A stretch of DNA of 64,000 bases from an uncultured Bacilli bacterium (GTDB taxonomy: Bacteria > Bacillota_I > Bacilli_A > RFN20 > CAG-449), in the NCBI GenBank assembly GCA_947632435.1, contig CANRPC010000010.1, positions 643 through 64,642 on the forward strand, in the 5' to 3' direction. The notes below the pieces were generated by a model, which was not told the origin of the DNA, did not search any database, and was given only the letters and a program-made list of their open reading frames with translations. Below, one piece after another: positions 3 to 57,032 of the stretch (its first letter is position 1; every line of letters begins with the position of its first letter). The position numbers were made by a program, and so were the translations under genes.

Positions 3-2066
3 TTTAAAAAACTTAGTTTAATAATAGATGATTTAAAAGAACAAAATTTAATTAGTAAAAATAATTATTTTAAATATTTATTTAATAATAAAAAATGCTT
101 TATTTATGGCTATTCAAAAAATGATGAAGAATTAAAATATTTTTTAGCTAAATTAAATATTAATTATCAGTATTTAGAGGATAAAATAGAACAAAATTTT
201 TCTCATACAATTATTAATTATGAAACTTTAGAAGATGAAGTTCGTGGATTATTTATAAAAATAATGACCTTAATTAAAAATGGAGTTAATTTGAATAATA
301 TTTATTTATATAAATTCCCAAGTGATTATAATTTTATTTTGAAAAAATACGCATATTATCATAATATTCCTATCGAATTTGAAGATGATATTATTTTATA
401 TGATGCTCCTTTATTTAAAAAATATTTAACATATTTGAATGATTTAGATTTTAAAGATGCTTTAGATAAACTTAAATTAGAGGTAAAAAAAGATCATTTT
501 GGTGTTATTAATGCGATAGTGAATAATTTGAATCAATTTTTATATTTAAAATTGGAAAAAGAAAAAGCAATTAACGCATTAATATATTTATCAAAAAAAA
601 CACTTTTAAAAAAAATAAAATATGAAGAATCTATAAAAATATGTAGTTTTTCTTCATTTATAAAAGATGATGATTATGTATTTATGCTTGGATTTTCTTT
701 AGGTGATTATCCAAATATTTATAAGGATATAGATTTTTTTACCGATAAAGAAAAAAGCATTTTGCATTTAAATAGTTCAAAATTGAAAACCCAAATCAAT
801 TATGAACAACTTGAAAAATTTATTCTTACAACAAAAAATTTAAGAATATCGTTTAAAGAAAAATATAATAATACAAGATATTTTAAATCTCTTTTAAAAG
901 ATAAATTAAATTTAAAAGAAGAAAAATATATTGATGAAAAAAATCGTTATTCAAAAAATTTATGTGAAATAGAAATTGCAAATTATATTGATGATTATTA
1001 TAAATATGGTACCTTAAATAAGTTCATGAAAACTTTTGATGAAAAAAATTTAAACTACAATTTATATGATCATCGATTTAAAGGTTTAAAACCATTTGAA
1101 TTACCAATGATTAATCTTTCATATTCCCAAATAAATAATTACAATACTTGCCCTTTCATGTATTTTGTTAAAAGATTTTTAAAATTAGATACTTCATCTG
1201 ATACTTTTGAGCTTAATGTAGGAAATCTATTTCATAAAATTCTTGAAGATTCTTTGACTAAAGAAATCTCTTTAAATGATTATGAAGAATTTATCAACGA
1301 AAAATTTAAAACTCCCAAGGATTTATTTTTCTTGTATCGATTATTGCCTCAAGTAGAAAAAGTGATTCAAAAAAATAAAAAATTTTTGCTTAACAGCGAT
1401 TATCAAAAGCAAATATCTGAAAAAGTATTAAAAATCGACATAGATAATGATTTAAGTATTAATGGTAAAATTGACAAAATTATGATTGATGAGAATAATA
1501 AAAGTCTAATCGTTGTTGATTATAAAACGGGTAATTTTGCTTTTAACATAAACAAAGTAAATTATGGAATAAATTTGCAACTTCCACTTTATTCACTCTT
1601 ATTAAAAGATTCTTTTAAAAATTATCATATCTCAGGGATATATATACAAAATATTTTGGTTAATGAAGAAAAAAATGATGATTATAACTATTTGCTAAAT
1701 GGTTTTAGTTTTGATGAAAAAAAACTTATTAATATTGATCGAAGTTTAGGCACATATTACCATAATAAAAAATGTTGTTCAGAATTTTTAAGTGGTATTA
1801 TTTTGAATAAAGATGGAACATTATCAAAATTAAGTCAACGAAAAATTTATGATGAAGAAAAATTTTCTAAACTTCTTTATTTGACTAAAGAACAAATAAA
1901 AAAAACAGCTTGGAATATTAAATCGTTAAAATTTGATATTAGACCAATAAAATTTAACTCTGAAAATTTGCCATGTGAAAATTGCAATTGCCTAGACATT
2001 TGCTTTAAAAAGGCTGAAGATGTTTTTTACGTTGATTTAAAAGAGGAAAAAAAAGATGAGATTTGA
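3..2066 (+). CDS. addB: AddB/RexB-like subunit of the AddAB helicase-nuclease (5'-truncated by the window edge)
   Basis: Frame is open from position 3. C-terminal PD-(D/E)xK nuclease (GKIDKI...VVDYKTG, QLPLY), Fe-S cysteines (TCPF ... CENCNCLDIC); overlaps addA. Confidence 0.85.
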   Translation, partial: FKKLSLIIDDLKEQNLISKNNYFKYLFNNKKCFIYGYSKNDEELKYFLAKLNINYQYLEDKIEQNFSHTIINYETLEDEVRGLFIKIMTLIKNGVNLNNIYLYKFPSDYNFILKKYAYYHNIPIEFEDDIILYDAPLFKKYLTYLNDLDFKDALDKLKLEVKKDHFGVINAIVNNLNQFLYLKLEKEKAINALIYLSKKTLLKKIKYEESIKICSFSSFIKDDDYVFMLGFSLGDYPNIYKDIDFFTDKEKSILHLNSSKLKTQINYEQLEKFILTTKNLRISFKEKYNNTRYFKSLLKDKLNLKEEKYIDEKNRYSKNLCEIEIANYIDDYYKYGTLNKFMKTFDEKNLNYNLYDHRFKGLKPFELPMINLSYSQINNYNTCPFMYFVKRFLKLDTSSDTFELNVGNLFHKILEDSLTKEISLNDYEEFINEKFKTPKDLFFLYRLLPQVEKVIQKNKKFLLNSDYQKQISEKVLKIDIDNDLSINGKIDKIMIDENNKSLIVVDYKTGNFAFNINKVNYGINLQLPLYSLLLKDSFKNYHISGIYIQNILVNEEKNDDYNYLLNGFSFDEKKLINIDRSLGTYYHNKKCCSEFLSGIILNKDGTLSKLSQRKIYDEEKFSKLLYLTKEQIKKTAWNIKSLKFDIRPIKFNSENLPCENCNCLDICFKKAEDVFYVDLKEEKKDEI

Positions 2067-41138: not shown

Positions 41139-42216
41139 GGGATTATATATACATATTCCCTTTTGTGATGAAATTTGCCCTTATTGTGGTTTTTCTCATA
41201 TTTTATCTTCTTGTAATAAACAAAATTTATATATTAATAGACTTAAAGAAGATATTTTAAAATACCAAAATCAATTTTTTTCATCTATATATATTGGAGG
41301 TGGAACACCATCTTCTTTAAATTACAAGCAACTTGAAGAACTTTTAAAATCTCTTCAAGTTTTTATACATAAAAATATTTCGTTTTCATTTGAAGCTAAT
41401 CCCCAATCACTTGATTTAGAAAAAATAAAATTGTTAGCAAAATATAATGTTAATCGTATCTCTATTGGCGTACAAACTTTTCAAAAACCTTTGCAGAAGA
41501 AATTAATGCGGTTTGCAACTTATTCGCAAATTAAAAATATTATTGAACAACTACATCAATTTGGAATAAATGATATTAATCTTGATTTGATGTATGGGAT
41601 AAATGGTGAGAATTTAACGCAATTAGAAAATGATTTAAAATTATTTACTTCTTTAGATATTAAACATATATCTTGTTATTGTTTACAAGTAGAAGAACAC
41701 ACAATATTTTATAATCAAAAAATAGAAGAAATGAATCAAGATGATGCTGCGGATGAGTATCAATTAATTTGTGAATATTTAAAGAAAAAAGGCTTTATAC
41801 ATTACGAAATTAGTAACTTTGCTAAAAAGGGCTATGAAAGCAAACATAATTTATTATATTGGCATAATGATGAATATGTTGGTTTAGGTATTTCAAGTGC
41901 TGGTTATGAAAATAATATACGTTACGTTAATGAAAATTCATTAACACATTATTTAAATAGTGAATCAAAAAAAGAAGAAGAAATATTGTCCATATTAGAT
42001 ATAGAAAAATATTATATAATTTTAAATCTCAGATTGGCTAAAGGTATAAATTTTTTAGATTTTAAAAAGAAATTTCATAAAGATTTTTTAAAAACATATG
42101 AAAAACAAATTGAAGCACTAAAAAAATACGATTATTTAAAAATAAATAAAAATAATTTATATGTTAAAGAAAAATATTTTTTTATATTGAATACTATCTT
42201 GTTATACTTTTTTTAA
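41119..42216 (+). CDS. hemW: Radical SAM heme chaperone HemW (HemN-like)
   Basis: YIHIPFCDEICPYC, GGGTPS, YEISNF, HNLLYW; near lepA as usual in Bacillota. Start probably ATG 41119. Confidence 0.9.
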   Translation: MRTKKNKGLYIHIPFCDEICPYCGFSHILSSCNKQNLYINRLKEDILKYQNQFFSSIYIGGGTPSSLNYKQLEELLKSLQVFIHKNISFSFEANPQSLDLEKIKLLAKYNVNRISIGVQTFQKPLQKKLMRFATYSQIKNIIEQLHQFGINDINLDLMYGINGENLTQLENDLKLFTSLDIKHISCYCLQVEEHTIFYNQKIEEMNQDDAADEYQLICEYLKKKGFIHYEISNFAKKGYESKHNLLYWHNDEYVGLGISSAGYENNIRYVNENSLTHYLNSESKKEEEILSILDIEKYYIILNLRLAKGINFLDFKKKFHKDFLKTYEKQIEALKKYDYLKINKNNLYVKEKYFFILNTILLYFF

Positions 42217-43121
42217 AATTTAAATTTAATTTTAATTTCCTTAATAATATCTTGATATTCTAAATCATTTAAAAAATGAATTAATTTATTTCGTTTGTTA
42301 TTAAATGGATATTCATAAAAACGATTATATATTTCAGGATGTGGATTATTCCAAAAATCATAGCCATCAATAATATGATTTTCAAAAAAACAATTTAAAA
42401 TTATTGTCTTACCAAAACTTCTCCAAGGACGAGAGATATAAACATTGTTTACTGACTCATTTTTCTTTTTAAAAGTACAATTTAATACGTAAAAGCCATC
42501 ATTTTGGAATAAACTATGACTTGGTGCAAAAACATAACCTGAATCTGAAGAAATTAAAGTGCAATTTTCAAAAAGTGAAGATCCCGAACCAAAAATAAAA
42601 TCAATAGCGCCTTCAATTTCACAATTTATAAATTTAGAATAAACATTTCCTTCAATAAATAATTCTTCTTTTGATAAAAAATTGAAGTAACGAATTTTTA
42701 AATCATCAGGAAGTGGTCCAAGAAATAATGTATCTTGGTAAGAAGTAAAATAACAATTCTTTGCTTTAAAATTATTTCCTAAAACCTCTAATGCAATGGC
42801 TTGATGATATTTTTTTTCATTAGCTAAATTCATTATGGAAATATTTTCTAAAGAACAATTATTTCCTTTAACAATCATTGTCGCGGTTCTAAAAGTATTA
42901 TAATCTCTTTTGTCTTCGTGTATTTTTAAACTATAATCATCAAATGCTATAATAACATTTTCTTTTGATTCACCAATTATTTTAATATTATCTTTTTTTA
43001 TTATGATTTTTTCTTTATAAAATCCATTTTTAATAAAAATTTCACCATTTTTACTTACTAAATCTAATGCTTTAGCTAAACTATCTATATCAGTATTTTT
43101 TTCTACAACAACTTTTTGCAT
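42213..43121 (-). CDS. Pectin methylesterase (CE8), no signal peptide
   Basis: G.YKE, TFRTAT, QAIAL, YQDTL, IDFIFG, SRPW. Confidence 0.9.
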   Translation of the reverse strand: MQKVVVEKNTDIDSLAKALDLVSKNGEIFIKNGFYKEKIIIKKDNIKIIGESKENVIIAFDDYSLKIHEDKRDYNTFRTATMIVKGNNCSLENISIMNLANEKKYHQAIALEVLGNNFKAKNCYFTSYQDTLFLGPLPDDLKIRYFNFLSKEELFIEGNVYSKFINCEIEGAIDFIFGSGSSLFENCTLISSDSGYVFAPSHSLFQNDGFYVLNCTFKKKNESVNNVYISRPWRSFGKTIILNCFFENHIIDGYDFWNNPHPEIYNRFYEYPFNNKRNKLIHFLNDLEYQDIIKEIKIKFKF

Positions 43122-43244
43122 AATTAACACCTTTATATATTTTGCCTTTTTTTGAAGTAAAAAACAACTTTTGATTTAACCAAGAATTATATTTATATAA
43201 TTTAACTTATTTAAATCCAAGTTCATATTTCCGTAATTTCTATA

Positions 43245-45111: not shown

Positions 45112-46002
45112 ATGGGTGGTCGTTTAGATAGATCAGAGATAATTTTCAAAATTATTTCTTACACTTTATTAACTATATTCGCATTATTTTGTTTATATCC
45201 ATTTATTTATACCATTTCCGCGGCTATTTCATCACAGGATGCTGTAGATGCTGGTAAAGTTGTTATTTTTCCAATAGGATTACAATTCGATGCATTTAAA
45301 TATGTCTTTGAAGATAGAAGCTTCTGGTTAGCATATACATCTACTTTATTTGTTACTCTTTGGGGTACAGTTTGGTCAATGTTTATTTCGATTTTTGGTG
45401 GCTATGCACTTTCTAAAAAAAGAATACCATTTAATAAAGGTTTGAATTTCTTCTTAGTATTTACAATGTGGTTCTCAGCTGGTATGATTCCAACTTTAAT
45501 TAACTATCAACAAACAAGAGATATTTTCCAAAATATTGGTATTGTTGACCAAAAATGGGTTGTTGTTATCGCAATGGGACTTGCTGCTTATAATATTATC
45601 TTATTAAGAAATGCTTTCTCTGGCGTACCAAAAGAAATCGAAGAAGCAGCAACTGTTGATGGTGCAAATGAATTCCAAATTGCAACTAAAGTTTTTATAC
45701 CTATGTCTAAGGCTTCAATTGCAACAGTAGCATTGTTCTATGGTATCTCACGTTGGAATGGTTACTTCTGGGCAAAGCAAATCATGGTTGGTGAAGATCA
45801 AATACCACCATTACAAGTTTTTATCCGTAATACTTTAGATAAAGTTCTTGGTGGTGAAGAAACTCACTCTTATGATGGATTCTCGGTTAGTTCATTATTC
45901 TATGCAATGATTGTTTGCGCTGTTGTTCCAATTATTATTATTTATCCATTTATTCAAAAATATTTTGCTGCTGGTGTTAACCTCGGTGGCGTTAAAGAAT
46001 AA
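45112..46002 (+). CDS. Carbohydrate ABC permease (LplC/YtcP type)
   Basis: FSAGMIP, EEAATVDGA, RWNGYF, YPFIQKYF..G...GGVKE. Confidence 0.92.
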   Translation: MGGRLDRSEIIFKIISYTLLTIFALFCLYPFIYTISAAISSQDAVDAGKVVIFPIGLQFDAFKYVFEDRSFWLAYTSTLFVTLWGTVWSMFISIFGGYALSKKRIPFNKGLNFFLVFTMWFSAGMIPTLINYQQTRDIFQNIGIVDQKWVVVIAMGLAAYNIILLRNAFSGVPKEIEEAATVDGANEFQIATKVFIPMSKASIATVALFYGISRWNGYFWAKQIMVGEDQIPPLQVFIRNTLDKVLGGEETHSYDGFSVSSLFYAMIVCAVVPIIIIYPFIQKYFAAGVNLGGVKE

Positions 46003-46072
46003 TTTATTTGGTTATTTCTATTTATTTTAAATAGTTATAATAAATTTTGATTTTTATGAAAGGAGAAAAAAA

Positions 46073-48289
46073 ATGAAAAAAATCAATCTTATCAAAGTAT
46101 TAGCTTTTTCCAGTTTACTACTTGTTGGCTGTAATAGCACTACTACAACTTCATCTAAATCAAGTGGATCAAATGGTTCTGGTGATTTATGTTATGATTT
46201 TACTTATGAACCTGCTGATAGACCTGCAAATCCACAACATGCTGAAGGTGATTTAGTTCGTTATACAGAATCATGGAGATCTGTTAAAACAGAAGGATGG
46301 GGAATCACAAAAGCAGTGGAAAGAGATCCTAAAAAATTAGAAGCTGCTTTAAAATTATTTGATTACATGTATTCTGATGCTGGAAATGAATTAATGTCAT
46401 ATGGACCTTCTGAATATGGCTACCTTGCAATGGAAGGTGATGAAGTAAAAACTATTGATTATCAAGGTAAAAAGGTTCCAGAATTATCTCAAGGAACATT
46501 AGCTCAACTTGCTGATCCAAAATTAGGAAATAACAACTATACTAACTATTATCGTTATTTCGTTGGTGCTACATTACCTATTGGTTATGTTAAAGAGCAA
46601 GGTATGGAATATCAATGTACTCATGAAGGTGGTAAAGAAGGTTTAGCAAGAATTAATAAAAACATTGAAGTTGGTACTTTTGAACATCCATATGCTGGTG
46701 GAAATGCTGATTCAGAAAATGTTGATGTTTCTCCAATGGATCAAAGAACAACATTGAATTTATCTATTCTTTATCAACAAAACGATTCAGAACCAAAATT
46801 TACTCCAGCAGGTAAAATTGGTAACGATGGTTATTTAGATCCAAAAGGAAATAAATATTCTGTTGGTGACTGGAAACCTACATGGAAAGCACTTCAAGAA
46901 AGATTAAATCTTTCCTTTACTAATGCTACAGCAGGTAATAATGTCGATAATAACTATACTGCTTATAAAGCACAAGGATTTGGCAATATTGATATTATTA
47001 CAGGTAAAGCAAGTAGCTTTGCTGTTGATGGACCAACTAGCTTTGTTAATTTAATGTGCTATCTTGATAGAATGCCTAATTTCTTGAATTTCTTAGTTAA
47101 TCACCCAATCGTTTTAAAAACAGTTACTTCACTTGGTGATAACAACCAAGATGCTATTTATTATGCACCATATTTTGATGGATATGATGACATTGAACGT
47201 ATGACTCTTTTAAGAGAAGATTGGTTAGTTAAATTACTTGATGGAACAGATACTAATTTTGATACTGATACAACTTTAGAAACTCATTACACAGCAAAAA
47301 TTGCTAAAAAAGATTATACAGTTAAAGTTGCTGCATCATTAGATAATACAGAAACTAAAGAAATTAAGAAAAATCAATCTACAAAAAATATTATTGAAAT
47401 TCAAAATGCTCTTGAAGTTAAAAATGGTGAAACATTAACCAAAGCATTATTGCAATACATCAAAGATGTCTATGGTGAACAATACAAAAAACCATCTGAT
47501 TTATTTATGGGAGTAGATGCTGCTTATGATGCTGATGAATTTATTGCATTATTAAGATGTGTAAAAACAAATCCAGTATTATTAAGTGGTGATAAAACAA
47601 AAGAAATTATTCCATTCTATCCTCGTGCTGTTTCTAATGATCGTCTTTCTGATATCTTTAGATGGGGTGCTCATTTATGGGGTGTCCAAGGTGTTGAATC
47701 AAGAAGTGGATTCTTATTTATCGATAACGAAGATGAAAGAACCGTTAAAGATGCTCGTGGTCAATTAAGCACAGCTCAAATGCTTGACAATTTACATCAA
47801 ATTTATGATGAAGGCTTAATTTTGAAAAACTTTACTGATAAAACTGCAACAGGTGGTACATCAGGTAACTTTAATACTGATTTAGGTACTGCAAATAAAG
47901 GTTTTGCAACTTATGACTACTGTCAAACACAAACAGCTTTAAATACATATGGCTATGCAAATAATGAATTTAAATTAATTCCAGTTATTGGTGCATTTAC
48001 AAATTGGGGAAATAAATTACAATACGTATTAACACCAACAACGTTTAAATTAACATCAGAAACAAATGATAGTCTTACAACTGATTATGTTGATTTAAAT
48101 ACAATTACTGTTGAAAAAGGAAAAACAAATCTTTGGACAAAATATGTTATTGCTGGATTTGGTGGAACATATGAAGCTACACATGAAACATTATGTGCAA
48201 CTCCTGAAGAATATGTTGAGCTTATGAAACAATATAAAGTTCAAGATTTAGAACAAATTTATTCAAGTGCTTACCAAGTAATGTATTAA
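46073..48289 (+). CDS. Oligosaccharide-binding lipoprotein (family-1 SBP, LplA/YtcQ-like) with apparently rearranged block order
   Basis: LVGC lipobox; SBP motifs WKALQERLN, YLDRMPNF, LREDWL, IYDEGLI and GWGITK..ALKLFDYMYSDAG..LMSYG. Confidence 0.85.
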   Translation: MKKINLIKVLAFSSLLLVGCNSTTTTSSKSSGSNGSGDLCYDFTYEPADRPANPQHAEGDLVRYTESWRSVKTEGWGITKAVERDPKKLEAALKLFDYMYSDAGNELMSYGPSEYGYLAMEGDEVKTIDYQGKKVPELSQGTLAQLADPKLGNNNYTNYYRYFVGATLPIGYVKEQGMEYQCTHEGGKEGLARINKNIEVGTFEHPYAGGNADSENVDVSPMDQRTTLNLSILYQQNDSEPKFTPAGKIGNDGYLDPKGNKYSVGDWKPTWKALQERLNLSFTNATAGNNVDNNYTAYKAQGFGNIDIITGKASSFAVDGPTSFVNLMCYLDRMPNFLNFLVNHPIVLKTVTSLGDNNQDAIYYAPYFDGYDDIERMTLLREDWLVKLLDGTDTNFDTDTTLETHYTAKIAKKDYTVKVAASLDNTETKEIKKNQSTKNIIEIQNALEVKNGETLTKALLQYIKDVYGEQYKKPSDLFMGVDAAYDADEFIALLRCVKTNPVLLSGDKTKEIIPFYPRAVSNDRLSDIFRWGAHLWGVQGVESRSGFLFIDNEDERTVKDARGQLSTAQMLDNLHQIYDEGLILKNFTDKTATGGTSGNFNTDLGTANKGFATYDYCQTQTALNTYGYANNEFKLIPVIGAFTNWGNKLQYVLTPTTFKLTSETNDSLTTDYVDLNTITVEKGKTNLWTKYVIAGFGGTYEATHETLCATPEEYVELMKQYKVQDLEQIYSSAYQVMY

Positions 48290-48304
48290 AATTGATTTTA
48301 TTGA

Positions 48305-48339
48305 TTAGGGTTGGAGATATTCAACTTCTCCAACTCTAA
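48305..48339 (+). terminator. Intergenic hairpin after the SBP gene (stabiliser or partial terminator)
   Basis: TTAGGGTTGGAGA-N9-TCTCCAACTCTAA. Confidence 0.7.
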
Positions 48340-48361
48340 TTTCATTAAAAAGGAGGTATAT

Positions 48362-49192
48362 ATGTTAGAAGAAAATAAGTCAGTAAAAATGGCAAAAAGA
48401 ATTTCTAAATTTCAAAAGATTTTTGTAATTTTATTTATGTTATCTTTTGTTTTGCTATTTATTTATTGTTTAGGATTTGCAACGCCATTTATTGATGTAA
48501 AAAAAGTTAATTCAATTGCACCTGTTACTCAACTTGGCGAAGGCATGAAAGATGTACTAGTATCAAAATATTGTGTCGAAGGTGTTGATGCTAAAACTTG
48601 TGGCGGAGTATTTACAAATTCCAGTCATAATATTGTAAATTTAGCTTATTTTGTTAAATTTGCATCAGATGATGTTCAAAATTTAAATCATTTGTTATTT
48701 GGTTTATCAATTGGTGGAATTTTAATTTCTTTATTATTATTTGTATATCGTGCTCAAATAAGAAAAAGATATTATATAACTAATTATATTGCTGCAGGTA
48801 TATGTACAATTTATTCTCTTGTAACATGTATTGTTCTCTTTGTATTATTTGGAAATTATAATAATCAATTAAATAATGTTGAATATGATATTATTAATAA
48901 AGGTAATGCTGTGACAATTAATTTAAAAACAACATTTTCTAAAGCATCATTTGATTATATTTACGCTATTGGAAATGTAATTTTAATTATTATGTTAATT
49001 GCTGCGGCAGCTCTTGTATTTTTGCATATCATGAAATTTATTGCTTATAAAGATTTTGATAAGATATATAATTCTACGACATCTGAAAATGCTACAGCTT
49101 ATTCTTTAGATTATATTAAAGAAGAACAAAGCACTGCTAAAAATGTTTCTAGTGAAATAAAAGAAGAAGTTAAAAAGGAGGATGAACAATAA
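48362..49192 (+). CDS. Uncharacterised 4-TM membrane protein
   Basis: Four hydrophobic segments, extracellular loop with two Cys. Start ATG 48362 after AGGAGG. Confidence 0.75.
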   Translation: MLEENKSVKMAKRISKFQKIFVILFMLSFVLLFIYCLGFATPFIDVKKVNSIAPVTQLGEGMKDVLVSKYCVEGVDAKTCGGVFTNSSHNIVNLAYFVKFASDDVQNLNHLLFGLSIGGILISLLLFVYRAQIRKRYYITNYIAAGICTIYSLVTCIVLFVLFGNYNNQLNNVEYDIINKGNAVTINLKTTFSKASFDYIYAIGNVILIIMLIAAAALVFLHIMKFIAYKDFDKIYNSTTSENATAYSLDYIKEEQSTAKNVSSEIKEEVKKEDEQ

Positions 49193-49773
49193 TGGAAAAA
49201 GAAAAAGTTATTGATTCTGTAAATGAAGAAGAAACTGCTACAGAATTAAATTCTTCTACAGAAAATAATCAAAATTCTGAAGATAATAATGAACTTCCTA
49301 AACATACATTACTTCATCCAAATCCAGAAATTTTAAGATATTCAACAAATAAATTAAGTTTCTGGCTTGTTATATTAGCAATTATTTTAAATTGTTTAGC
49401 ATTTCTTGATTATTATGGAAAAAGAAATGTCAAACCAGATATGGTACTTGGTGTTGATGTTATTATTAATATTTTAGTTTTACTTGCTTGTTTTGTTACA
49501 GCAGAAGAAGTTAAAGCATATAGAAAACGTTTTGCTTATGTATCATTTCTTTTAGCAGTAGTTCAAATTGCTAGAATTTTCTTTATTCCATTAAGATATT
49601 ACAAAGTTTTAATGGAATACAATAGTTTTGTTTATATTGTTATGCTTTATGTTTTAGGCGCAGTATTTCTTACTCTTGCAGGATTAATTTGTATTTTCCG
49701 TTCAAATATTTTAGTTAACTATTTAAATAGCATTAAAGATGAACCTGCAGAATCTAAAGGTGAGGTAGAATAA
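49192..49773 (+). CDS. Uncharacterised 4-TM membrane protein
   Basis: Acidic N-terminal tail, four TM segments, TAATG coupling. Confidence 0.75.
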   Translation: MEKEKVIDSVNEEETATELNSSTENNQNSEDNNELPKHTLLHPNPEILRYSTNKLSFWLVILAIILNCLAFLDYYGKRNVKPDMVLGVDVIINILVLLACFVTAEEVKAYRKRFAYVSFLLAVVQIARIFFIPLRYYKVLMEYNSFVYIVMLYVLGAVFLTLAGLICIFRSNILVNYLNSIKDEPAESKGEVE

Positions 49774-49774
49774 A

Positions 49775-50872
49775 ATGGCACAAGTAAGATTAGATCACTT
49801 AAAAAAAATATATCCTGCAGAAAAAGGTACCGATGGTGGCAAAGGAGTTCTTGCTGTTGAAGATTTCAATATTGATATTGAAGATGGTGAGTTTATTGTT
49901 TTAGTTGGTCCATCTGGATGTGGTAAATCCACAACATTAAGAATGATTGCAGGTCTAGAAGAAATTTCAGAAGGACATGCATATGTTGATGGTAAAGAAG
50001 TAACAAATTTAGCCGCTAAAGATCGTGATATGGCAATGGTTTTCCAAAACTATGCTTTATATGCACATATGACAATTTATCAAAATATGGCTTTCTCTCT
50101 TGTATTACGTAAGGAGAAAAAAGAAGTTATCCATGAAAAAGTCATGTATGCAGCAAAAGTTTTGGATTTAGTTTCTCAATTAAATAAAAAACCAGCTGCT
50201 TTATCAGGTGGTCAAAGACAAAGAGTTGCTGTTGGTAGAGCAATTGTAAGAAATCCAAAGGTATTCTTATTTGATGAGCCTTTATCAAATCTTGATGCTA
50301 AATTAAGAAGTTCTATGCGTCGTGAATTAAAATTATTACATAGAAAATTACATTCTACAATTATCTATGTTACACATGACCAAATAGAAGCTTTAACTTT
50401 AGCAAATCGTATTGTTGTTATGTCAATGGGTAAAGTTCAACAAATTGATACCCCATTAAAAATTTATTCCGATCCAAATAATTTGTTTGTTGCAGGTTTT
50501 ATTGGTAATCCACCTATGAATTTTATTAAAGGATATGTTGATGAAAAAGGAATATTTATTAATGAAACTTGTCAATTTAAAATTCCAAATGAAAGTTTTG
50601 ATTTCTTAAAGCAAAAAAATTATTTGAATAAAGAATTAGTATTAGGCTTTAGACCTGAACATTGTATGGAAAACGGACATATTCCATGTCGCGTAGATTT
50701 ATTAGAACATTTAGGACAAGCTACATTAATTCATTGCTATCTAGGTGAAAATAAAATTATTGTTAAATTGCCTGGTTGGTTAGATTATGAACACGATTCA
50801 AATATTAATATTGATTTAAATAGTAAATTAATTTGTTTCTTCGATGGAATTACCGAAGATAGAATTAGATAG
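49775..50872 (+). CDS. MalK/MsmX-type sugar ABC ATPase 1
   Basis: GPSGCGKST, LSGGQRQR, DEPLSNLDA, VTHDQ, FVAGFIG.PPMN. Confidence 0.93.
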   Translation: MAQVRLDHLKKIYPAEKGTDGGKGVLAVEDFNIDIEDGEFIVLVGPSGCGKSTTLRMIAGLEEISEGHAYVDGKEVTNLAAKDRDMAMVFQNYALYAHMTIYQNMAFSLVLRKEKKEVIHEKVMYAAKVLDLVSQLNKKPAALSGGQRQRVAVGRAIVRNPKVFLFDEPLSNLDAKLRSSMRRELKLLHRKLHSTIIYVTHDQIEALTLANRIVVMSMGKVQQIDTPLKIYSDPNNLFVAGFIGNPPMNFIKGYVDEKGIFINETCQFKIPNESFDFLKQKNYLNKELVLGFRPEHCMENGHIPCRVDLLEHLGQATLIHCYLGENKIIVKLPGWLDYEHDSNINIDLNSKLICFFDGITEDRIR

Positions 50873-50880
50873 GAGGATGT

Positions 50881-51489
50881 ATGGATTTTAAAGGTTACGC
50901 AAGAAAAAAGGCAATTGCTTTAAAAAGAAATTTCTATACTATTCCATTTGTCTTTAATATAATTACTCTTGTCATATTTACATGTGCAATTTATGTACAT
51001 GCTCAAGTATGTCCTCGTGTGGATTATCAAGAAACAAATAAATTTATTTTACAACTTAATCACTTGAATGCTTTATTCTTATTTATTATTACTTTATTTT
51101 CTATTTTAGCAGTTGTTGCTTATATAAAATATATGGGAAGAATCAAGAATTATTTCATGTTATTTATCTATTATGTTCTTTCAATTTCTCAAATTATTCT
51201 TGAAGTATTCTTACTAATCGGTATTCAAAAAGATTACCAAGTGAAAAAAGTTGCCGATAATCCAAGCGCAGCATTATTACAAACTATATCATTAGAAAAA
51301 AATTCAATTTTCTTAATTTATTTACATTTCGTTTTTTTAGGAATTACATTAATTATTGTTAGCTTTGCACCTCTTATTCAAAAATTATTAAAATCTGTTA
51401 AATTTTCACATATTAGTGAAGATGGTTCTATAGAAGTAAATGCTACTGAAGAAACTATTAGTGAAACAGTTAATAGTGAAGAAAAATAA
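50881..51489 (+). CDS. Uncharacterised 4-TM membrane protein
   Basis: SD AGGAGG; four hydrophobic segments; acidic tail. Confidence 0.75.
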   Translation: MDFKGYARKKAIALKRNFYTIPFVFNIITLVIFTCAIYVHAQVCPRVDYQETNKFILQLNHLNALFLFIITLFSILAVVAYIKYMGRIKNYFMLFIYYVLSISQIILEVFLLIGIQKDYQVKKVADNPSAALLQTISLEKNSIFLIYLHFVFLGITLIIVSFAPLIQKLLKSVKFSHISEDGSIEVNATEETISETVNSEEK

Positions 51490-51491
51490 TA

Positions 51492-52031
51492 ATGAAAAAA
51501 GATAAAAAAACAAAAGAAACTATAGAAATGGATCCTTATGCAATTGATAAGTTGCATAAGGTTCCTTTTTGGCTTAAGGTGCTTTTTCTAAAATATTGGT
51601 TTTATGGAGCATTAAACTTTTATACTCTTATTGGAATATATGCTTCTGATACTAATTGGCAATGGAGAGCTATTTTTACTGGTTTAATTGGTGGTGCATT
51701 CCATGATGTTGTTATTAATAAAATTATTTTATTATGGGAAACAGATAAGCACGAAGGACAGCATTTTACAATGATGCTTTCTAAAAAATATATTTCATTT
51801 ATAGTGAATATAATTTATTTTGTGGTAGTAATGGTAATTTCTTATATTTTAATTAACTGGTTAGGATTTATTTTTAATGAAAAATTAAAAGTTAATTTTG
51901 TTCCAGGACAAGAGCCATTTTCTTTTGCATTAATAATATTAATTGTTGATGGCATATTTTTAATTATTAAGTATATAATTAAACGTATTATTAATTTAAT
52001 TAAAAGTAAAAAAAATGCTAGCGATAACTAG
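51492..52031 (+). CDS. Uncharacterised membrane protein
   Basis: About four hydrophobic segments; closely coupled to the upstream gene. Confidence 0.72.
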   Translation: MKKDKKTKETIEMDPYAIDKLHKVPFWLKVLFLKYWFYGALNFYTLIGIYASDTNWQWRAIFTGLIGGAFHDVVINKIILLWETDKHEGQHFTMMLSKKYISFIVNIIYFVVVMVISYILINWLGFIFNEKLKVNFVPGQEPFSFALIILIVDGIFLIIKYIIKRIINLIKSKKNASDN

Positions 52032-52102: not shown

Positions 52103-53191
52103 ATGGCTGAATTAAAATTAGTCAATATTGATAAAATTTATGATAATGGCTTTGAAGCAGTTCATAAATTTAATCTTGATATTAAAAATAATGAATTTAT
52201 TATTTTTGTTGGTCCATCTGGATGTGGTAAATCAACAACTTTAAGAATGATTGCTGGACTTGAAGAAATTACCAAAGGTGAATTATATATTGATGGTAAA
52301 TTAGTTAATAATTTGTCACCTAATGAAAGAGGCATTGCGATGGTTTTCCAAAGTTATGCTTTGTATCCTACAATGACTGTTTATGATAATTTGGCATTTG
52401 GATTGCGATTAAAAGGTTTTGATGAAGATGAAATTGAAGAAAGAGTTAATGAAGTTTCTAAAATTTTAGGTCTTGAAAAATATCTTCAAAGAAAACCAAA
52501 AAATTTATCTGGTGGACAAAGACAAAGAGTGGCACTTGGTAGATCCTTAATTCGCCATACGAAAGTCTTCTTAATGGATGAACCTTTATCAAATTTGGAT
52601 GCAATTCAAAGAGTTAATATGCGTTCTGAAATTATTAAAATTCATCGTCGTGTTGGAGCAACAACTATTTATGTTACCCATGACCAAGTTGAAGCAATGA
52701 CAATGGCAGATAGAATTGTTGTTATGAAAGATGGTTATATTCAACAAGTTGGTACACCAAAAGAATTATATTTTAAGCCATATAATTTATTCGTTGCAGG
52801 ATTTATTGGTGATCCTCCTATGAATTTCTTTAATGGCAAAATAGATGGTGAAAATTTTGTAACTGAGGATGGATATGTATTTAAACTTTCAGGATATGAT
52901 AAAGAGCATTTAAGTCGTATTGCTGAACATGAACATGTTGTTATGGGCTTTAGACCAGAAGATTGTTCTACTGAATTTCTTTCAGTTCCTGCGATAAAAG
53001 AAAATATGATTGTGGAAATCAATGAAATGCTTGGTGATACTTTAAATATATATGGTGATATTGGTTGCAATAAGATGGTTGTTCGTACTAACCCATTTAC
53101 AAAATTTGAGTTAGATAAAGAATTCCATTTTGAAGTTGCCTACGAACATTTACATTTCTTTGATAAAGATACAACAAATAGAATTTATTAA
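52103..53191 (+). CDS. MalK/MsmX-type sugar ABC ATPase 2
   Basis: GPSGCGKST, LSGGQRQR, DEPLSNLDA, VTHDQVEAMTMADR. Confidence 0.93.
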   Translation: MAELKLVNIDKIYDNGFEAVHKFNLDIKNNEFIIFVGPSGCGKSTTLRMIAGLEEITKGELYIDGKLVNNLSPNERGIAMVFQSYALYPTMTVYDNLAFGLRLKGFDEDEIEERVNEVSKILGLEKYLQRKPKNLSGGQRQRVALGRSLIRHTKVFLMDEPLSNLDAIQRVNMRSEIIKIHRRVGATTIYVTHDQVEAMTMADRIVVMKDGYIQQVGTPKELYFKPYNLFVAGFIGDPPMNFFNGKIDGENFVTEDGYVFKLSGYDKEHLSRIAEHEHVVMGFRPEDCSTEFLSVPAIKENMIVEINEMLGDTLNIYGDIGCNKMVVRTNPFTKFELDKEFHFEVAYEHLHFFDKDTTNRIY

Positions 53192-53201
53192 TTTTTTATT
53201 C

Positions 53202-53237
53202 ACTCATATACTCTTTTATTGATTAGAGTATATGAGT
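53202..53237 (+). terminator. Hairpin between transporter and catabolic genes
   Basis: ACTCATATACTCT-N10-AGAGTATATGAGT, followed by T-rich sequence. Confidence 0.7.
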
Positions 53238-53261
53238 TTCTTATTTTTTAGGAGGAAAAAT

Positions 53262-54803
53262 ATGTTTGAATTTATTTTTGTTTCGCCTACTTCACTAACT
53301 ATTGAATTAATTAATAAAGATATTTATTACACGAAAAAAGAATATGATGTTTATCTTGATGATAAATTATTAAAAAAAGGTGTAAAAACAAATGTTGTTT
53401 CTTTATATGATTTGATTCCAAATAGAGAGTATAAAGTAAGAATAGATGATTGCGAAAAAAAAGTCCGTACAAAAAATGTAAGCTGCATTTTTGATATTAT
53501 GGATTTTGGTGTTCATAAAAATGGAACCGATGATGACACAAAAGCTATTAATCAAGCCATTATGATGACTCCTGAAAATGGTTTACTTGTTTTTCCTGAA
53601 GGAGTTTATAGAATTACATCTTTATTTTTGAAATCAAATATTTTTATTGAACTAAAAAAAGGTGCAATATTATTAGCTTCCGAAAATGTGGATGATTATC
53701 CTATATTTACTGGTGAATTACCTAGATATGATATTGATGATAATGTTCAATTAGGACAATGGGAAGGAAGTCCGTTCCCTAATAAAGCTTCTATTATTGC
53801 AGGTTATTGGTTAAATAATGTTTATTTATATGGCGAAGGCACTATTGATGGCAATGCACAAAATAGTACATGGTGGATTAATCATAAAACTCATCCATGG
53901 GGACGTCCAAGATTATTATTTTTAGATGGTTGTAATGATGTTCAAATTCAAGGTTTATCTTTTCAAAATACTCCTTGTTGGACACTTCATCCTTTCTTTT
54001 CAAAAAAAATTGGATTTTATGATATTAGAGTAACAAATCCCAAAGATTCACCTAATACAGATGGAATGGATCCTGAATCTTGTGATGATGTAAAAATTAT
54101 TGGTGTTATTTTCTCTGTTGGCGATGATTGTATTGCTATTAAATCTGGAAAAATGTATATGGGAATGAAATATAAAACACCAAGTTCTAATTTTATCATC
54201 CGCAATTGTTTAATGAAAGATGGTCATGGTGCTATAGTTTTAGGATCAGAGATGTCTGGTGGAATAAATAATTTGCAAGTGGAAAGATGTATTTTCCAAA
54301 ATACTGATCGCGGATTAAGAATTAAAACCCGTAGGGGAAGAGGAAAATATGCCATTATAGATGGTGTTGAATTTAAAGATATAATTATGGATGGAGTATT
54401 AACACCACTTGTCATTAATATGTTTTATTTTTGTGATCCTGATGGAAAAACAGAATATGTTTATTCTAAAGAAAAATTGCCAGTCGATGATAGAACTCCA
54501 TATTTAGGTAAATTTACTTTTAAAAATATTGTGGCGACAAATGTTGAATGGGCTGCAGGATATTTTTACGGTTTACCAGAAAGACCAATTGAAGAAATAA
54601 ATATTGAAAATTGTACCTTTGAATATAAATTAGATGCTACTGAAGGATGCCCTGCAATGATGTCATTTGCAGAAAAAGTTTCTAAACGTGGTTTTTCTTT
54701 AAATTATGTTAATAAAGTTTCATTAAAAAATGTAAAACTATTTGGTAATGTCGGCGAAAGAGTTATAATAAATAATGTAGAAAGCATTACTGATGATGAA
54801 TAA
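53262..54803 (+). CDS. GH28 polygalacturonase, no signal peptide
   Basis: All four GH28 motifs: NTD, GDD, GHG, RIK. Start ATG 53262 after GGAGG. Confidence 0.93.
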   Translation: MFEFIFVSPTSLTIELINKDIYYTKKEYDVYLDDKLLKKGVKTNVVSLYDLIPNREYKVRIDDCEKKVRTKNVSCIFDIMDFGVHKNGTDDDTKAINQAIMMTPENGLLVFPEGVYRITSLFLKSNIFIELKKGAILLASENVDDYPIFTGELPRYDIDDNVQLGQWEGSPFPNKASIIAGYWLNNVYLYGEGTIDGNAQNSTWWINHKTHPWGRPRLLFLDGCNDVQIQGLSFQNTPCWTLHPFFSKKIGFYDIRVTNPKDSPNTDGMDPESCDDVKIIGVIFSVGDDCIAIKSGKMYMGMKYKTPSSNFIIRNCLMKDGHGAIVLGSEMSGGINNLQVERCIFQNTDRGLRIKTRRGRGKYAIIDGVEFKDIIMDGVLTPLVINMFYFCDPDGKTEYVYSKEKLPVDDRTPYLGKFTFKNIVATNVEWAAGYFYGLPERPIEEINIENCTFEYKLDATEGCPAMMSFAEKVSKRGFSLNYVNKVSLKNVKLFGNVGERVIINNVESITDDE

Positions 54804-55395
54804 TTTGAATCTATATATCAAGTTAAATAAAGAATTGAGTCATAGAAAAGCAGAATTTGTTTTTAAATCAATTATAGGTAATTCTTTTCAATTAAATTGG
54901 GGTGATGATGAGATATTTGGGAGTTTAGTACTAGAACATCCAACTACTCAATTTGTTAATTTAAAGTTAAATTATGATGCTTTATGTTCTGATTTAATGG
55001 ATGATGTTACTATCGTCATTGTTCCAAGATTTGAAGATACATTAGAAAAAATTGTTCGTGAAAAATGTCAACCTGGACTTTATCCTATTGTAAAAATTCT
55101 TCCTCAACTTTTAAATGAAGATGAAGAATTGTTTGAAAAATTAAGTGAATTTAAAAATAAGGTTAATGAAGATATTCTTGAAACGGTAAAAGTTTATTTA
55201 GAGTTAAATATGTCTGTGAATATGGTTGCTAGGCTTGTCTATACACACCGTAATACGGTAAATTACCGAATTACAAGATTTATTGAAATGACAGGGATAG
55301 ATATACGTTCATCATTAAACGGTTATTATGTTTATATGCTTATATCCTGGAAGAATCCAGTTTATAATAAAATTAAAGAGGAGGAAAATTTATGA
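54793..55395 (+). CDS. PucR/CdaR-type C-terminal HTH regulator
   Basis: ETVKVYLE.N.SV...AR..YTHRNTVNYRI.R..E.TG.D. Confidence 0.85.
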   Translation: MMNNLNLYIKLNKELSHRKAEFVFKSIIGNSFQLNWGDDEIFGSLVLEHPTTQFVNLKLNYDALCSDLMDDVTIVIVPRFEDTLEKIVREKCQPGLYPIVKILPQLLNEDEELFEKLSEFKNKVNEDILETVKVYLELNMSVNMVARLVYTHRNTVNYRITRFIEMTGIDIRSSLNGYYVYMLISWKNPVYNKIKEEENL

Positions 55396-56003
55396 CTATT
55401 CTAGAAAAAATTCAAGAAGTCAAATTAGTACCAGTTGTTGTACTAAACAAAGTAGAAGATACTTTACCAACAATTAAAGCTTTGCATGATGGCGATGTTC
55501 CAGTTGCAGAAATTTGTTTTAGAACACCTTGTGCAGCTGAATGCATTAAAAAAGCATGTGAAGCATATCCTAATGATTTAATTGGTGCTGGTACTGTAAT
55601 TAACGCTAAACAATGTGAAGAAGCTATTGCTTGTGGCGCAAAATTTATTGTATCACCTGGTTTATCAAGATCAGTATACGAAGTTTGTAAAAAACATAAT
55701 GTTCCATATTTACCAGGTATTGTCACACCTACTGAAATTATGGAAGCATTAGAATTAGGTTTAACAACATTGAAATTCTTCCCTGCAGGAGTATTTGGAG
55801 GACTTAAAGCAATTAAAGCTTTAGGTGCAGCATTCCCATCTGTTAAATTCATGCCTACTGGTGGAGTTAATAATGAAAATTTAAAAGAATTTGTTGAATG
55901 TGATAAAATTCTTGCATGTGGCGGTTCTTGGTTAGTAAAAAAAGATCCTGCAGAAACTGTAAAAGTTTGCTTAGAAGCTAGAAAGATTATTAAAGGAGAA
56001 TAA
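55392..56003 (+). CDS. eda: KDPG/KHG aldolase
   Basis: EICFRT, GAGTV, FIVSPG, LKFFPA, PTGGV. Confidence 0.95.
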   Translation: MTILEKIQEVKLVPVVVLNKVEDTLPTIKALHDGDVPVAEICFRTPCAAECIKKACEAYPNDLIGAGTVINAKQCEEAIACGAKFIVSPGLSRSVYEVCKKHNVPYLPGIVTPTEIMEALELGLTTLKFFPAGVFGGLKAIKALGAAFPSVKFMPTGGVNNENLKEFVECDKILACGGSWLVKKDPAETVKVCLEARKIIKGE

Positions 56004-56006
56004 AAA

Positions 56007-57032
56007 ATGGCAAAAGTAGTTACAATGGGCGAAATAATGCTTCGCTTATCAACACCTGGAAATAAAAGATTTGTACAATCTGATGTATTTGATGTAGTTT
56101 ATGGCGGTGGTGAAGCTAATGTTGCAGTCAGCTGCGCTAATTATGGACACGATGCATATTTTGTATCAAAATTACCTACTCATGAAATTGGTCAATCAGC
56201 AGTAAATGCTTTAAGAAAATATGGAGTTCATACAGATTATATTGCTCGTGGTGGCGATAGAGTTGGTATTTATTATCTTGAAACAGGTGCTTCAATGCGC
56301 CCTTCAAAAGTAATTTATGATCGTGCACATTCTGCAATTGCTGAAGCAGATGTTAAAGATTTTGATTTTGATAAAATTATGGAAGGTGCTTCTTGGTTCC
56401 ACTGGTCAGGAATTACACCTGCAATTTCTGATAAAGCAGCAGAACTTGTTAAATTAGCTTGTCAAGCTGCAAAACGTCATGGAGTTACAGTATCTTGTGA
56501 TTTAAATTTCCGTAAAAAATTATGGACATCAGAAAAAGCAATTTCTATTATGCGTCCATTAATGGAATATGTAGATGTTTGTATTGGTAATGAAGAAGAT
56601 GCTGAATTATGTTTAGGCTTTAAACCAGAAGCTAATGTTGAAGCTGGTGAAACAGGTGCTGAAGGTTATAAAGGCATTTTTAAACAAATGGCTAAAGAAT
56701 TTAATTTTAAATATGTAATTTCTACATTGCGTGAATCATTTTCCGCAACACATAATGGTTGGAAAGCATTAATTTATAACGGAAAAGAATTCTATGAATC
56801 AAAACGTTATGATATTAATCCAATTATTGATCGTGTTGGTGGAGGAGATTCCTTCTCTGGTGGAATTATTCATGGATTATTAACTTATCCTAATGATCAA
56901 GGAAAAGCATTAGAGTTTGCAGTTGCAGCATCAGCTTTAAAGCATACAATTAATGGTGATTTCAATTTAGTATCAACTTCAGAAGTTGAATCACTTGCTG
57001 GTGGCAATGCAAATGGACGTGTACAACGTTAA
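56007..57032 (+). CDS. kdgK: 2-keto-3-deoxygluconate kinase (PfkB family)
   Basis: GEIMLRL, GGGEANVA, HWSGITPA, DLNFRKKLW, DRVGGGDSF; follows eda. Confidence 0.92.
   Translation: MAKVVTMGEIMLRLSTPGNKRFVQSDVFDVVYGGGEANVAVSCANYGHDAYFVSKLPTHEIGQSAVNALRKYGVHTDYIARGGDRVGIYYLETGASMRPSKVIYDRAHSAIAEADVKDFDFDKIMEGASWFHWSGITPAISDKAAELVKLACQAAKRHGVTVSCDLNFRKKLWTSEKAISIMRPLMEYVDVCIGNEEDAELCLGFKPEANVEAGETGAEGYKGIFKQMAKEFNFKYVISTLRESFSATHNGWKALIYNGKEFYESKRYDINPIIDRVGGGDSFSGGIIHGLLTYPNDQGKALEFAVAASALKHTINGDFNLVSTSEVESLAGGNANGRVQR

Follow-up and report, generated by a model that had tools for sequence, protein, structure and literature searches.

The locus analysed here, in a window of 64,000 nucleotides of DNA from an uncultured Bacilli bacterium, raises the question of whether a solute-binding protein (SBP) of an ABC importer can carry its subdomains in a non-circularly permuted order and, if it can, whether the re-ordered chain still folds, and what the new connectivity does. 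A preliminary description had pointed to an open reading frame in which the sequence motifs of such proteins occur out of order; the reading frame and every motif that it named are present. Our preferred reading, to which we give a probability of about 85%, is that the product, P0001, is a permuted SBP for pectin or oligogalacturonides in which a 148-residue block has been relocated in one small clade.

Out-of-order homology within P0001

The non-circular B-A-C permutation proposed in the preliminary description is borne out by phmmer, BLASTP and block HMMs. In a phmmer search against the PDB, the match of P0001 to AlgQ1 (E 1.1e-6) is split over three stretches: residues 314-397 correspond to AlgQ1 81-158, residues 488-642 to AlgQ1 158-297, and residues 63-197 to AlgQ1 303-414. 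Compared by BLASTP with P0008, a canonical relative, P0001 yields blocks A, B and C as the out-of-order HSPs that had been predicted: block A (query 224 to about 646 with subject 48 to about 472; 47% identity), block B (59-206 with 475-622; 66%, E 3e-63) and block C (651-737 with 636-720; 44%). The block A HSP was printed as 224-671 with 48-497, and its ends were set by the loss of homology together with the block HMMs; the latter place B at 60-206, A at 225-646 and C at 651-737, covering positions 2-145 of 148, 2-421 of 425 and 1-86 of 85-86 of the respective models, i.e. all three at full length. A profile of canonical relatives runs collinearly with AlgQ1 (E 5.5e-32; Smon0123, E 1.2e-18). 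The family norm is A-B-C, from which P0001 and nine relatives depart with B-A-C; distant homologues were not found to be collinear with P0001, and canonical homologues yield out-of-order HSPs instead. By homology, P0001 is an ABC SBP of the AlgQ1/AlgQ2/Smon0123 kind with a genuine non-circular permutation. Searches of P0001 against Pfam (SBP_bac_1 and SBP_bac_8 included) and NCBIfam gave no family at E <= 1, and the canonical relatives P0008 and P0030 were likewise without a family-model match.

Table 1. Parts of the P0001 gene and neighbouring genes, in window coordinates.
Feature	Coordinates	Strand	Basis
Pectinesterase flanking the operon	42213..43130	-	Domain search
Two ABC permeases (BPD_transp_1) immediately preceding P0001	44074..46002	+	Domain search
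Whole P0001 gene: 738-aa lipoprotein SBP, blocks B-A-C	46073..48289	+	ORF and motifs, phmmer, BLASTP, block HMMs
Signal peptide, aa 1-20, lipobox LLVGC	46073..46132	+	Translation read by eye
Tether from lipid anchor to block B, aa 21-58; variable, predicted disordered	46133..46246	+	pLDDT 28-68
Block B, aa 59-206: N2, loop-3 motif GYVKEQGMEYQ and first C2 helix (185-199)	46247..46690	+	Homology, HMM, AF2
New linker, aa 207-223, between the end of B and the first strand of N1	46691..46741	+	No DSSP element
Block A, aa 224-646: subdomains N1 and C1, family-specific insert at about aa 398-486	46742..48010	+	Homology, HMM
New direct C1-C2 junction, aa 647-650 (NKLQ); canonical proteins hold block B there	48011..48022	+	BLASTP against P0008
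Block C, aa 651-738: rest of subdomain C2	48023..48286	+	BLASTP, HMM, model alignment to AlgQ residue 490
MalK/MsmX-type ABC ATPase of the operon (ABC_tran and OB_MalK)	49775..50872	+	Domain search
Second MalK/MsmX-type ABC ATPase	52103..53191		Domain search
GH28 polygalacturonase, PucR-type HTH protein, KDPG aldolase, PfkB sugar kinase	53232..57032	+	Downstream pectin/uronate catabolism

The boundaries in Table 1 revise part of what was first proposed. That a late block had moved to the front is correct, but its start had been placed at aa 37, whereas the homologous block begins at about aa 59 (46247); in all canonical relatives this block follows block A. The hexamers that had been read as microhomologies at the junctions (CTGGTG at 46179 and 46695; GGAAAT at 46700 and 48008) do exist, but they are uninformative, because a shared 6-mer occurs in about 24% of 30-nt window pairs drawn at random from the gene, the first hexamer lies about 70 nt upstream of the true start of block B, and the event is older than the divergence to 58% identity. 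C20 is near-invariant across the family; aa 1-58 are 45-60% identical to those of the B-A-C relatives, mostly owing to the signal peptide; and the 17-aa linker is missing from canonical proteins. Two candidate remnants were considered and set aside: a second-lipobox relic in the linker, where the ‘HPxV’ residues continue canonical block B sequence, and a remnant of the canonical block A end ahead of block B, which was too weak by eye.

Inheritance and genomic setting of the permuted order

P0001 belongs to an unnamed family of AlgQ-like lipoprotein SBPs of about 700-770 aa (314 representatives at E <= 1e-3 and 50% identity). A block-HMM census of 280 collected relatives found A-B-C in 173, A-B with block C undetected in 68, and B-A-C in 10, all of the latter with full-length ORFs; two more fragments of one B-A-C cluster agree with that order. 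The ten proteins, which form seven clusters at 90% identity and are 58-100% identical, come from separate Logan, NCBI and ENA contigs or assemblies. In a 71-row tree of block A they make up one clade (SH-aLRT 100) that is nested among canonical proteins, is sister to the canonical P0008-P0011 (support 95) and has a long stem branch (0.45); at 50% identity the order is confined to this clade. Identity of P0001 to its B-A-C relatives is 76-80% in block B, 60-70% in A, 46-64% in C and 18-41% in the linker, so that the relocated block is the best conserved part and the new linker the least. These sequence comparisons show that the permutation was inherited by a clade that has since diverged, and that its blocks remain under constraint.

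In a scan of species-representative genomes, which gave 48 loci of at most 55% identity, all 46 classified loci are canonical (L055 and L062 are partial genes only); so are all 55 species-representative loci with both A and B and all nine other relatives that gave a match. None of the 33 loci in a scan of JGI metagenomes is B-A-C, and in one of them (L068, 63%) B adjoins C, as in canonical proteins. Two apparent permutants with block A at the C-terminus (P0188 and P0211) were rejected as truncated proteins with unrelated N-terminal repeats.

The preliminary description had left room for a recent rearrangement or a misassembly, in which pieces of a canonical gene were joined in the wrong order. 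The source genome is indeed a draft of 42 contigs, and junction 2 (46691-46741) is bridged by run X1 alone, possibly the sample from which the window itself comes. However, neither view accords with an order common to ten proteins down to 58% identity in independent assemblies; the junctions have no long repeats, only 6-mers; and contigs of other studies cross two of the three junctions with 0-3 mismatches: junction 1 is bridged by X5 (an RNA library) and X6 as well as by X1, and junction 3 by X5, with an RNA-library contig (47936-48137) spanning the NKLQ site. The contig comparison at the P0001 gene reported no joints or indels. An assembly artefact is, in our judgement, hardly credible.

The surroundings of the gene locate the event. 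Three genomes of the same genus (G001, G002 and G003) and one of the same order (G030) carry a canonical A-B-C SBP at the same operon position, with mem268, two permeases and the SBP in the order seen in the window; G001-G003 also have matches to the membrane ORFs downstream and to the ATPase, the G030 locus stopping at a contig end, and a pectinesterase match is absent at the G002 locus. The flanking permeases and ATPase are 54-65% identical to the relatives' copies, and the positional orthologues of the one genus, canonical against permuted SBP, are 35-52% identical by block. Gene order and block alignments thus show that the rearrangement happened in place, in an otherwise conserved operon. 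The neighbouring genes also agree with the pectin/galacturonide uptake cluster suggested at the outset: from gene context, P0001 is probably the lipid-anchored SBP of a putative importer for a pectin-derived or oligogalacturonide ligand, and its nearest solved relatives bind uronate oligosaccharides.

Predicted fold and hinge connectivity

AF2 modelling of the permuted chain gave a pLDDT of 86.0 and a pTM of 0.88, with 90-98 over aa 71-160 of block B, from an alignment that paired B with A in nine B-A-C rows only, held canonical rows as unpaired fragments and had eight homologue rows for block C. In a first model the pLDDT of block B was about 50, because only nine rows covered it. Residues 218-738 of the model align to AlgQ1/AlgQ2 3-490 over 362-365 residues (Z 18.9-19.2, VIA-align), and the predicted two-lobed alpha/beta fold has an rmsd of 2.8-2.9 to apo AlgQ2 (VIA-align) and a Foldseek E of 9e-8. 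About 125 AlgQ residues have no partner in the alignment, a number matching the length of the moved block; sequential structure aligners cannot overlay B and A on one canonical chain together, and the placement of block B beside N1 therefore draws on homology and AF2 confidence, which make it probable.

Excerpts of the relevant papers describe Smon0123 as ordered N1-C1-N2-C2, its hinge loops lying at 146-154, 319-324 and 414-415 (PMC5717064), and ascribe to AlgQ2 three linker loops, with Glu396 as the trigger residue (PMC9751261); in both accounts, as excerpted, loop 2 is given a role in domain closure and is called central to closing (PMC5717064, PMC9751261). AlgQ1 E396 aligns with P0001 E179, in the near-invariant motif KEQGMEYQ, and numbering offsets between AlgQ1 and Smon0123 put the N2-C2 boundary at approximately aa 182. 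By homology to AlgQ1, AlgQ2 and Smon0123, block B would thus consist of N2, hinge loop 3 and the first C2 helix, consistent with the earlier view of the moved block as the second N-lobe segment, and in P0001 it precedes N1-C1. The further suggestion that each lobe had become contiguous, with hinge crossovers removed, is right about the loss of the C1-N2 hinge loop, but loop 3 and the first C2 helix moved along with block B, so that the chain would still cross between the lobes three times.

We propose that the block left its place between C1 and C2 and came to lie directly after the signal peptide, changing the subdomain order from N1-C1-N2-C2 to N2-N1-C1-C2. The permuted chain would still form the usual two-lobed Venus flytrap, with N2 packing on N1 unchanged: loops 1 (N1-C1) and 3 (N2-C2) would be kept as covalent hinges; loop 2 (C1-N2) would be the severed one; the chain would return from the C lobe to N1 via the flexible 17-aa linker; and C1 would be joined straight to what remains of C2 by a four-residue turn. 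The membrane tether, formerly attached to the start of N1, would enter at the hinge, and ligand capture and handover to the permeases would work as they do in canonical SBPs. The simplest route may be that a copy of B was inserted after the signal peptide and the internal one was then lost; alternatively, a tandem duplication and fusion may have been trimmed by deletions. Neither a B-A-B-C nor a fused tandem intermediate was found among the 280 proteins.

Severing a loop regarded as central to closing would fit a protein that is a non-functional relic or has moved to a non-transport role, the transporter using another SBP, and both the long stem branch and a canonical paralogue on contig C3 of the same genome can be read in that way. 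That paralogue is just 31% identical to P0001, however, and P0001 is the sole SBP gene of an operon whose order relatives keep. Moreover, all ten B-A-C ORFs are full length, the relocated block is the most conserved part, the permuted chain has a high predicted pTM, and X5 metatranscriptome contigs cover 20 of 30 bins of the gene, an RNA-library contig being no proof of transcription. We consider a relic or a change of role very improbable.

A third reading retains function and adds selection: the new topology would have been favoured for changed opening and closing kinetics or for a changed orientation toward the permeases. The permutation has been kept through divergence to 58% identity, the long stem branch is compatible with compensatory change, the tether attaches immediately ahead of N2's hinge-side strand, and the severed loop is the one with a closure role in the literature. 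On the other hand, permutations can be neutral, a changed function has no measured support, and the order is limited to one clade at 50% identity. The family also holds two other independent permutations, B-C-A (P0117, which also starts with B and shares the A|B breakpoint) and C-tail-first, which speaks for a tolerant scaffold and not for a specific advantage. An adaptive re-wiring is a tentative idea that we think unlikely, and it is similarly doubtful that an SBP working with one of three hinges cut and its tether at the hinge was selected for altered opening, closing or docking.

Comparison with known binding proteins and permutations

Like AlgQ1, AlgQ2 and Smon0123, P0001 would be a large two-lobed oligosaccharide SBP that partners an ABC importer, and its model resembles them in fold (Z 17.4-19.2, 349-365 residues aligned); uronate-containing ligands are common ground as well, if gene context is a guide in the case of P0001. 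It differs from them in starting with N2, loop 3 and the first C2 helix, in a block A insert of about 90 aa that AlgQ lacks, and in being predicted to be lipid-anchored, whereas they are periplasmic. Canonical members of its own family (P0008 and the G001-G003 orthologues) share the three blocks, the operon position and the lipoprotein start, and differ in the order A-B-C; the nearest collected canonical proteins, P0008-P0011, are 44-66% identical to P0001 by block.

Engineered circularly permuted periplasmic binding proteins serve in biosensors. As in these and in P0117, the order of elements is changed in P0001 while the fold is presumably kept; but B-A-C is no rotation of A-B-C, so that P0001 is not a circular permutant and, unlike one, needs an internal A-C junction in addition to new termini. 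A ‘domain dislocation’ between type I and type II binding proteins was reportedly proposed in 1999. The HK97-like capsid fold of phage BPP-1 is, according to the excerpted account, a natural non-circular permutation (PMC3863775). Both resemble P0001 in that elements are re-ordered within a kept three-dimensional arrangement, but they concern other folds or much older events between superfamilies, whereas here both orders occur within one genus. In the literature searched, which left most subscription journals outside its scope, we found no description of a natural non-circular permutation of an SBP.

Most fold permutations have been deduced by comparing distant families; in the present case a single bacterial genus has both chain orders in genes that are positional orthologues, providing a natural test of what covalent hinge loops contribute to Venus-flytrap folding, closure and docking, a question that to our knowledge has otherwise been approached only with circular permutants engineered for biosensors. 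Should the adaptive reading be true, the clade, together with the B-C-A and C-tail-first permutants, would be a natural experiment on connectivity versus SBP dynamics. For annotation, the family has neither a Pfam nor an NCBIfam model, and collinear alignment tools will mis-handle its permuted members. The LplA/YtcQ-type (aldouronate) SBPs, the point of reference in the preliminary description, are large Firmicutes lipoproteins of sugar importers, as P0001 would be; a canonical family member, P0093, is listed by JGI as ‘putative aldouronate transport system substrate-binding protein’.

Out-of-order homology in P0001

P0001, the solute-binding protein (SBP) of the window's ABC transporter, starts with a lipoprotein-type signal peptide ending in LLVGC, as read by eye in the translation, and has no Pfam or NCBIfam match at E ≤ 1. 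Among PDB sequences it matches the alginate-binding protein AlgQ1 best (E 1.1e-6), and the alignment falls into three separate stretches in shuffled order; therefore, the motif list of the preliminary description and its claim that a late block comes first are correct. The out-of-order BLASTP segments that it expected against homologues were also seen: P0008, a relative with the canonical order A-B-C, gives three clean HSPs, corresponding to blocks A, B and C. The block A HSP was printed as Q224-671/S48-497, but beyond ~Q646 it pairs block C of the query with block B of P0008, which are non-homologous.

Coordinates of P0001, its matched stretches, associated genes and the relative P0117 (amino acids, or nucleotides where marked nt)
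Feature	Position	Counterpart or content	Identity to P0008 (BLASTP)	Identity to six B-A-C relatives
P0001 ORF	nt 46073..48289 (+)	738 aa
Block A	224-~646	P0008 48-~472	47%	60-70%
Block B	59-206	P0008 475-622	66%	76-80%
Block C	651-737	P0008 636-720	44%	46-64%
New linker	207-223			18-41%
PDB search, stretch 1	314-397	AlgQ1 chain 81-158
PDB search, stretch 2	488-642	AlgQ1 chain 158-297
PDB search, stretch 3	63-197	AlgQ1 chain 303-414
Block A insert	nt 47264..47530 (~398-486)	beta-hairpin 414-434, helices 440-467
ATPase genes	nt 49775..50872; 52103..53191	ABC_tran + OB_MalK
Small membrane ORFs	nt 48311..49773; 50881..52031	293, 193, 202, 179 aa
Paralogue, window's own genome	nt 84782..86305 (-), contig C3	703-aa open frame
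P0117, signal peptide
P0117, block B	56-189
P0117, block C	203-289
P0117, spacer		~60 aa
P0117, block A	354-764

Block order across the family and origin in place

A word-indexed search returned 283 relatives of P0001 at E ≤ 1e-3, mostly of 700-770 aa, and HMMER, run exhaustively over representatives at 50% identity, returned 314 at E ≤ 1e-3 (176 at E ≤ 1e-30), with P0001 as the sole representative of its near relatives. The block YTESWRSVKTEGW...KEQGMEYQ...HP is N-terminal only in P0001, P0002, P0005 and P0006 (4 of 32 aligned sequences); in the other 28 it lies between 'PV..A..W' and 'VPTTF'. Block HMMs made from canonical rows were scanned over 280 collected proteins, including cluster members and fragments: 173 read A-B-C; 68 read A-B, with a block C too diverged for detection; 10 are fragments with A only; 10 read B-A-C (P0001-P0007, P0121, P0122 and P0124); 15 read C-tail-A-B-C (P0021, P0028 and its cluster); one reads B-C-A (P0117); and three are other fragments, namely P0123 ('B') and P0125 ('A-C'), members of the P0007 cluster compatible with B-A-C, and P0233 ('B-C'), a canonical piece. 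Over A and B, the profile of the canonical family aligns collinearly with AlgQ1 (E 5.5e-32). By segment identity, the relocated block B is still the best-conserved part of P0001, and the new linker acts like a spacer.

Neither Pfam nor NCBIfam has a model for this family of 314 representatives (50% identity), and the annotation of most members is 'hypothetical protein'. P0145, P0164, P0186, P0209, P0256, P0261 and P0263 (973-1294 aa; outside the window) carry 300-560 extra N-terminal residues before a canonical A-B(-C) body; P0188 and P0211 start with repeats that look, by eye, like those that bind cell walls or surfaces. An insert of ~90 aa in block A, found family-wide and absent from AlgQ1/AlgQ2, explains much of the family's size beyond the ~490 aa of those proteins.

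In a block A tree of 71 rows (quick IQ-TREE search, SH-aLRT support only), the nine B-A-C rows form one clade (SH-aLRT 100) on a long stem (0.45), sister (SH-aLRT 95) to canonical P0008-P0011 and within the canonical family; the B-A-C order is thus derived, with a single origin. Matches occur in 10 of 41 related genomes, the window's own among them, and all nine others have block A upstream of block B. All 55 species-representative-genome loci with both A and B are canonical, and no B-A-C order was found among 33 JGI metagenome loci. The window's own genome also holds a canonical-order paralogue, 31% identical to P0001.

Regions from four genomes, three of the same genus and one (G030) of the same order, were compared by tblastn with the window's proteins. 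The matched genes keep the window order: pectinesterase (-), the ORF mem268, two permeases, SBP, two membrane ORFs, ATPase and more membrane ORFs; the pectinesterase match is absent in one same-genus genome (G002), and the G030 locus ends with its contig just past the SBP. The permeases and ATPase are 54-65% identical to those of the window, and the SBP is canonical in all four loci. Thus, by position the P0001 gene is orthologous to canonical genes, and its blocks were rearranged in place.

The alternative of a recent rearrangement or a misassembly, raised in the preliminary description, does not hold: the 10 B-A-C proteins form 7 clusters at 90% identity on separate Logan, NCBI and ENA contigs, near-identical sequence occurs in public runs of four studies, and junctions 1 and 3 are spanned by other runs. 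Among contigs of public runs placed on window 45900-48400, with no joints or indels reported there, those of X1, X5 and X6 span junction 1 (about 46180-46250) and X5 contig 47936-48137 spans junction 3 (48008-48026); junction 2 (46691-46741) is spanned by X1 contig 46361-47117 only, X1 possibly being the window's own sample, and the X5 contig starting at 46672 reaches only 19 nt into block B. X5 is a metatranscriptome library, and its coverage (20 of 30 bins) fits expression of the P0001 gene without proving it. The proposed junction hexamers do exist; they carry no information on mechanism, as ~24% of random 30-nt window pairs in the P0001 gene have a 6-mer in common, the first hexamer lies ~70 nt upstream of the block B start, and the event is older than extensive divergence. 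The rearrangement of P0001 is real and inherited: it is a non-circular permutation of an AlgQ-like SBP that arose in place.

Predicted structure and hinge connectivity

A first AF2 model of P0001 had a pLDDT of 80.3 and a pTM of 0.83, with block B at ~50 and 9 alignment rows over it. Translations from 44 loci, unaltered and covering B only or A only, were then added once their correct block placement had been checked; the second model had a pLDDT of 86.0 and a pTM of 0.88 (10-residue block means 90-98 for aa 71-160 and 75-92 for aa 161-200 of block B, 78-80 in the linker-holding stretch and 71-96 in block C). Structural relatives of the model by Foldseek and VIA-align are AlgQ2 and AlgQ1 (Z 18.9-19.2), Smon0123 (Z 17.4-17.9), Blon_2347 and FusA, and the closest fits are open forms (apo AlgQ2, rmsd 2.8-2.9; substrate-free Smon0123, 3.0-3.4). 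Model residues 218-738 extend over residues 3-490 of AlgQ, and only 362-365 residues pair; the ~125 unpaired AlgQ residues match the size of the block supplied by the P0001 N-terminus. Because both programs are sequential aligners, we infer the position of block B, which would be adjacent to N1.

PMC5717064 describes Smon0123 as N1-C1-N2-C2 (subdomains of the N and C lobes) with hinge loops Tyr146-Ser154, Arg319-Thr324 and Ala414-Ser415, and PMC9751261 describes three linker loops in AlgQ2, closure triggered by Glu396 and hydrogen bonds between loops 1 and 2. P0001 residue 68 pairs with Smon0123 chain index 304 (~residue 321), within loop 2, and AlgQ1 E396 pairs with P0001 E179 in the near-invariant KEQGMEYQ motif; with AlgQ1 and Smon0123 numbering related through structure-alignment ranges, the N2-C2 boundary would lie near P0001 residue 182. 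By this approximate mapping from homology, block B corresponds to N2 together with loop 3 and the first C2 helix (185-199). In P0001, loops 1 and 3 would remain covalent and loop 2 would be interrupted; the 17-aa linker would carry the chain from the C lobe back to the first N1 strand (226-231), 'NKLQ' would join C1 to the remainder of C2, and the hinge would become the new entry point of the lipid tether (aa 21-58). Thus, the earlier picture of two contiguous lobes without crossovers is only partly right: by homology loop 2 is probably cut, and loops 1 and 3 are predicted to stay. P0001 most likely has one hinge loop cut and still functions as a binding protein, and its rearrangement bears on protein evolution and SBP mechanics.

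Other rearrangements and gene context

P0117 (766 aa; Logan contig of 64769 bases, outside the window) is a true circular permutant, placed among canonical proteins elsewhere in the block A tree, in a clade distinct from the B-A-C group. Another type, also outside the window, is seen in P0021, P0028 and 13 members of the cluster (740-743 aa): the signal peptide is followed immediately by the final ~30 residues of block C (motif ...YDTAYQRMKE), which the C-terminus lacks; P0021 and P0028 form their own clade in that tree (SH-aLRT 100). With the B-A-C order, these make three independent rearrangements within one family, which suggests that its scaffold is tolerant of re-connection; it is possibly also prone to internal duplication. 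No B-A-B-C or tandem-fusion intermediate occurs among the 280 collected proteins. Engineered circular permutants of binding proteins are on record, PMC8694067 names circular permutation in general terms as one mode of variation of bilobed proteins, and PMC3863775 and PMC10085705 describe non-circular permutations in other folds. No description of a natural non-circular permutation of an SBP was found in the literature searched, which includes few subscription journals.

The operon comprises two permeases, P0001 and two MalK-type ATPases, flanked by a pectinesterase, a GH28 enzyme, a PucR-type HTH protein, a KDPG aldolase and a PfkB kinase; uronate oligosaccharides are the ligands of the nearest solved relatives of P0001. 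From gene context, its role is most likely the uptake of pectin-derived oligogalacturonides. The cluster has two ATPase genes of MalK/MsmX type and only one permease pair. Four small predicted membrane ORFs lie inside the transporter operon; Pfam gives no family for three of them, and the 179-aa ORF has only two weak matches under curated cut-offs. In the same-genus loci, the 202-aa ORF has a match in one and the other three ORFs in all three (24-39% identity).
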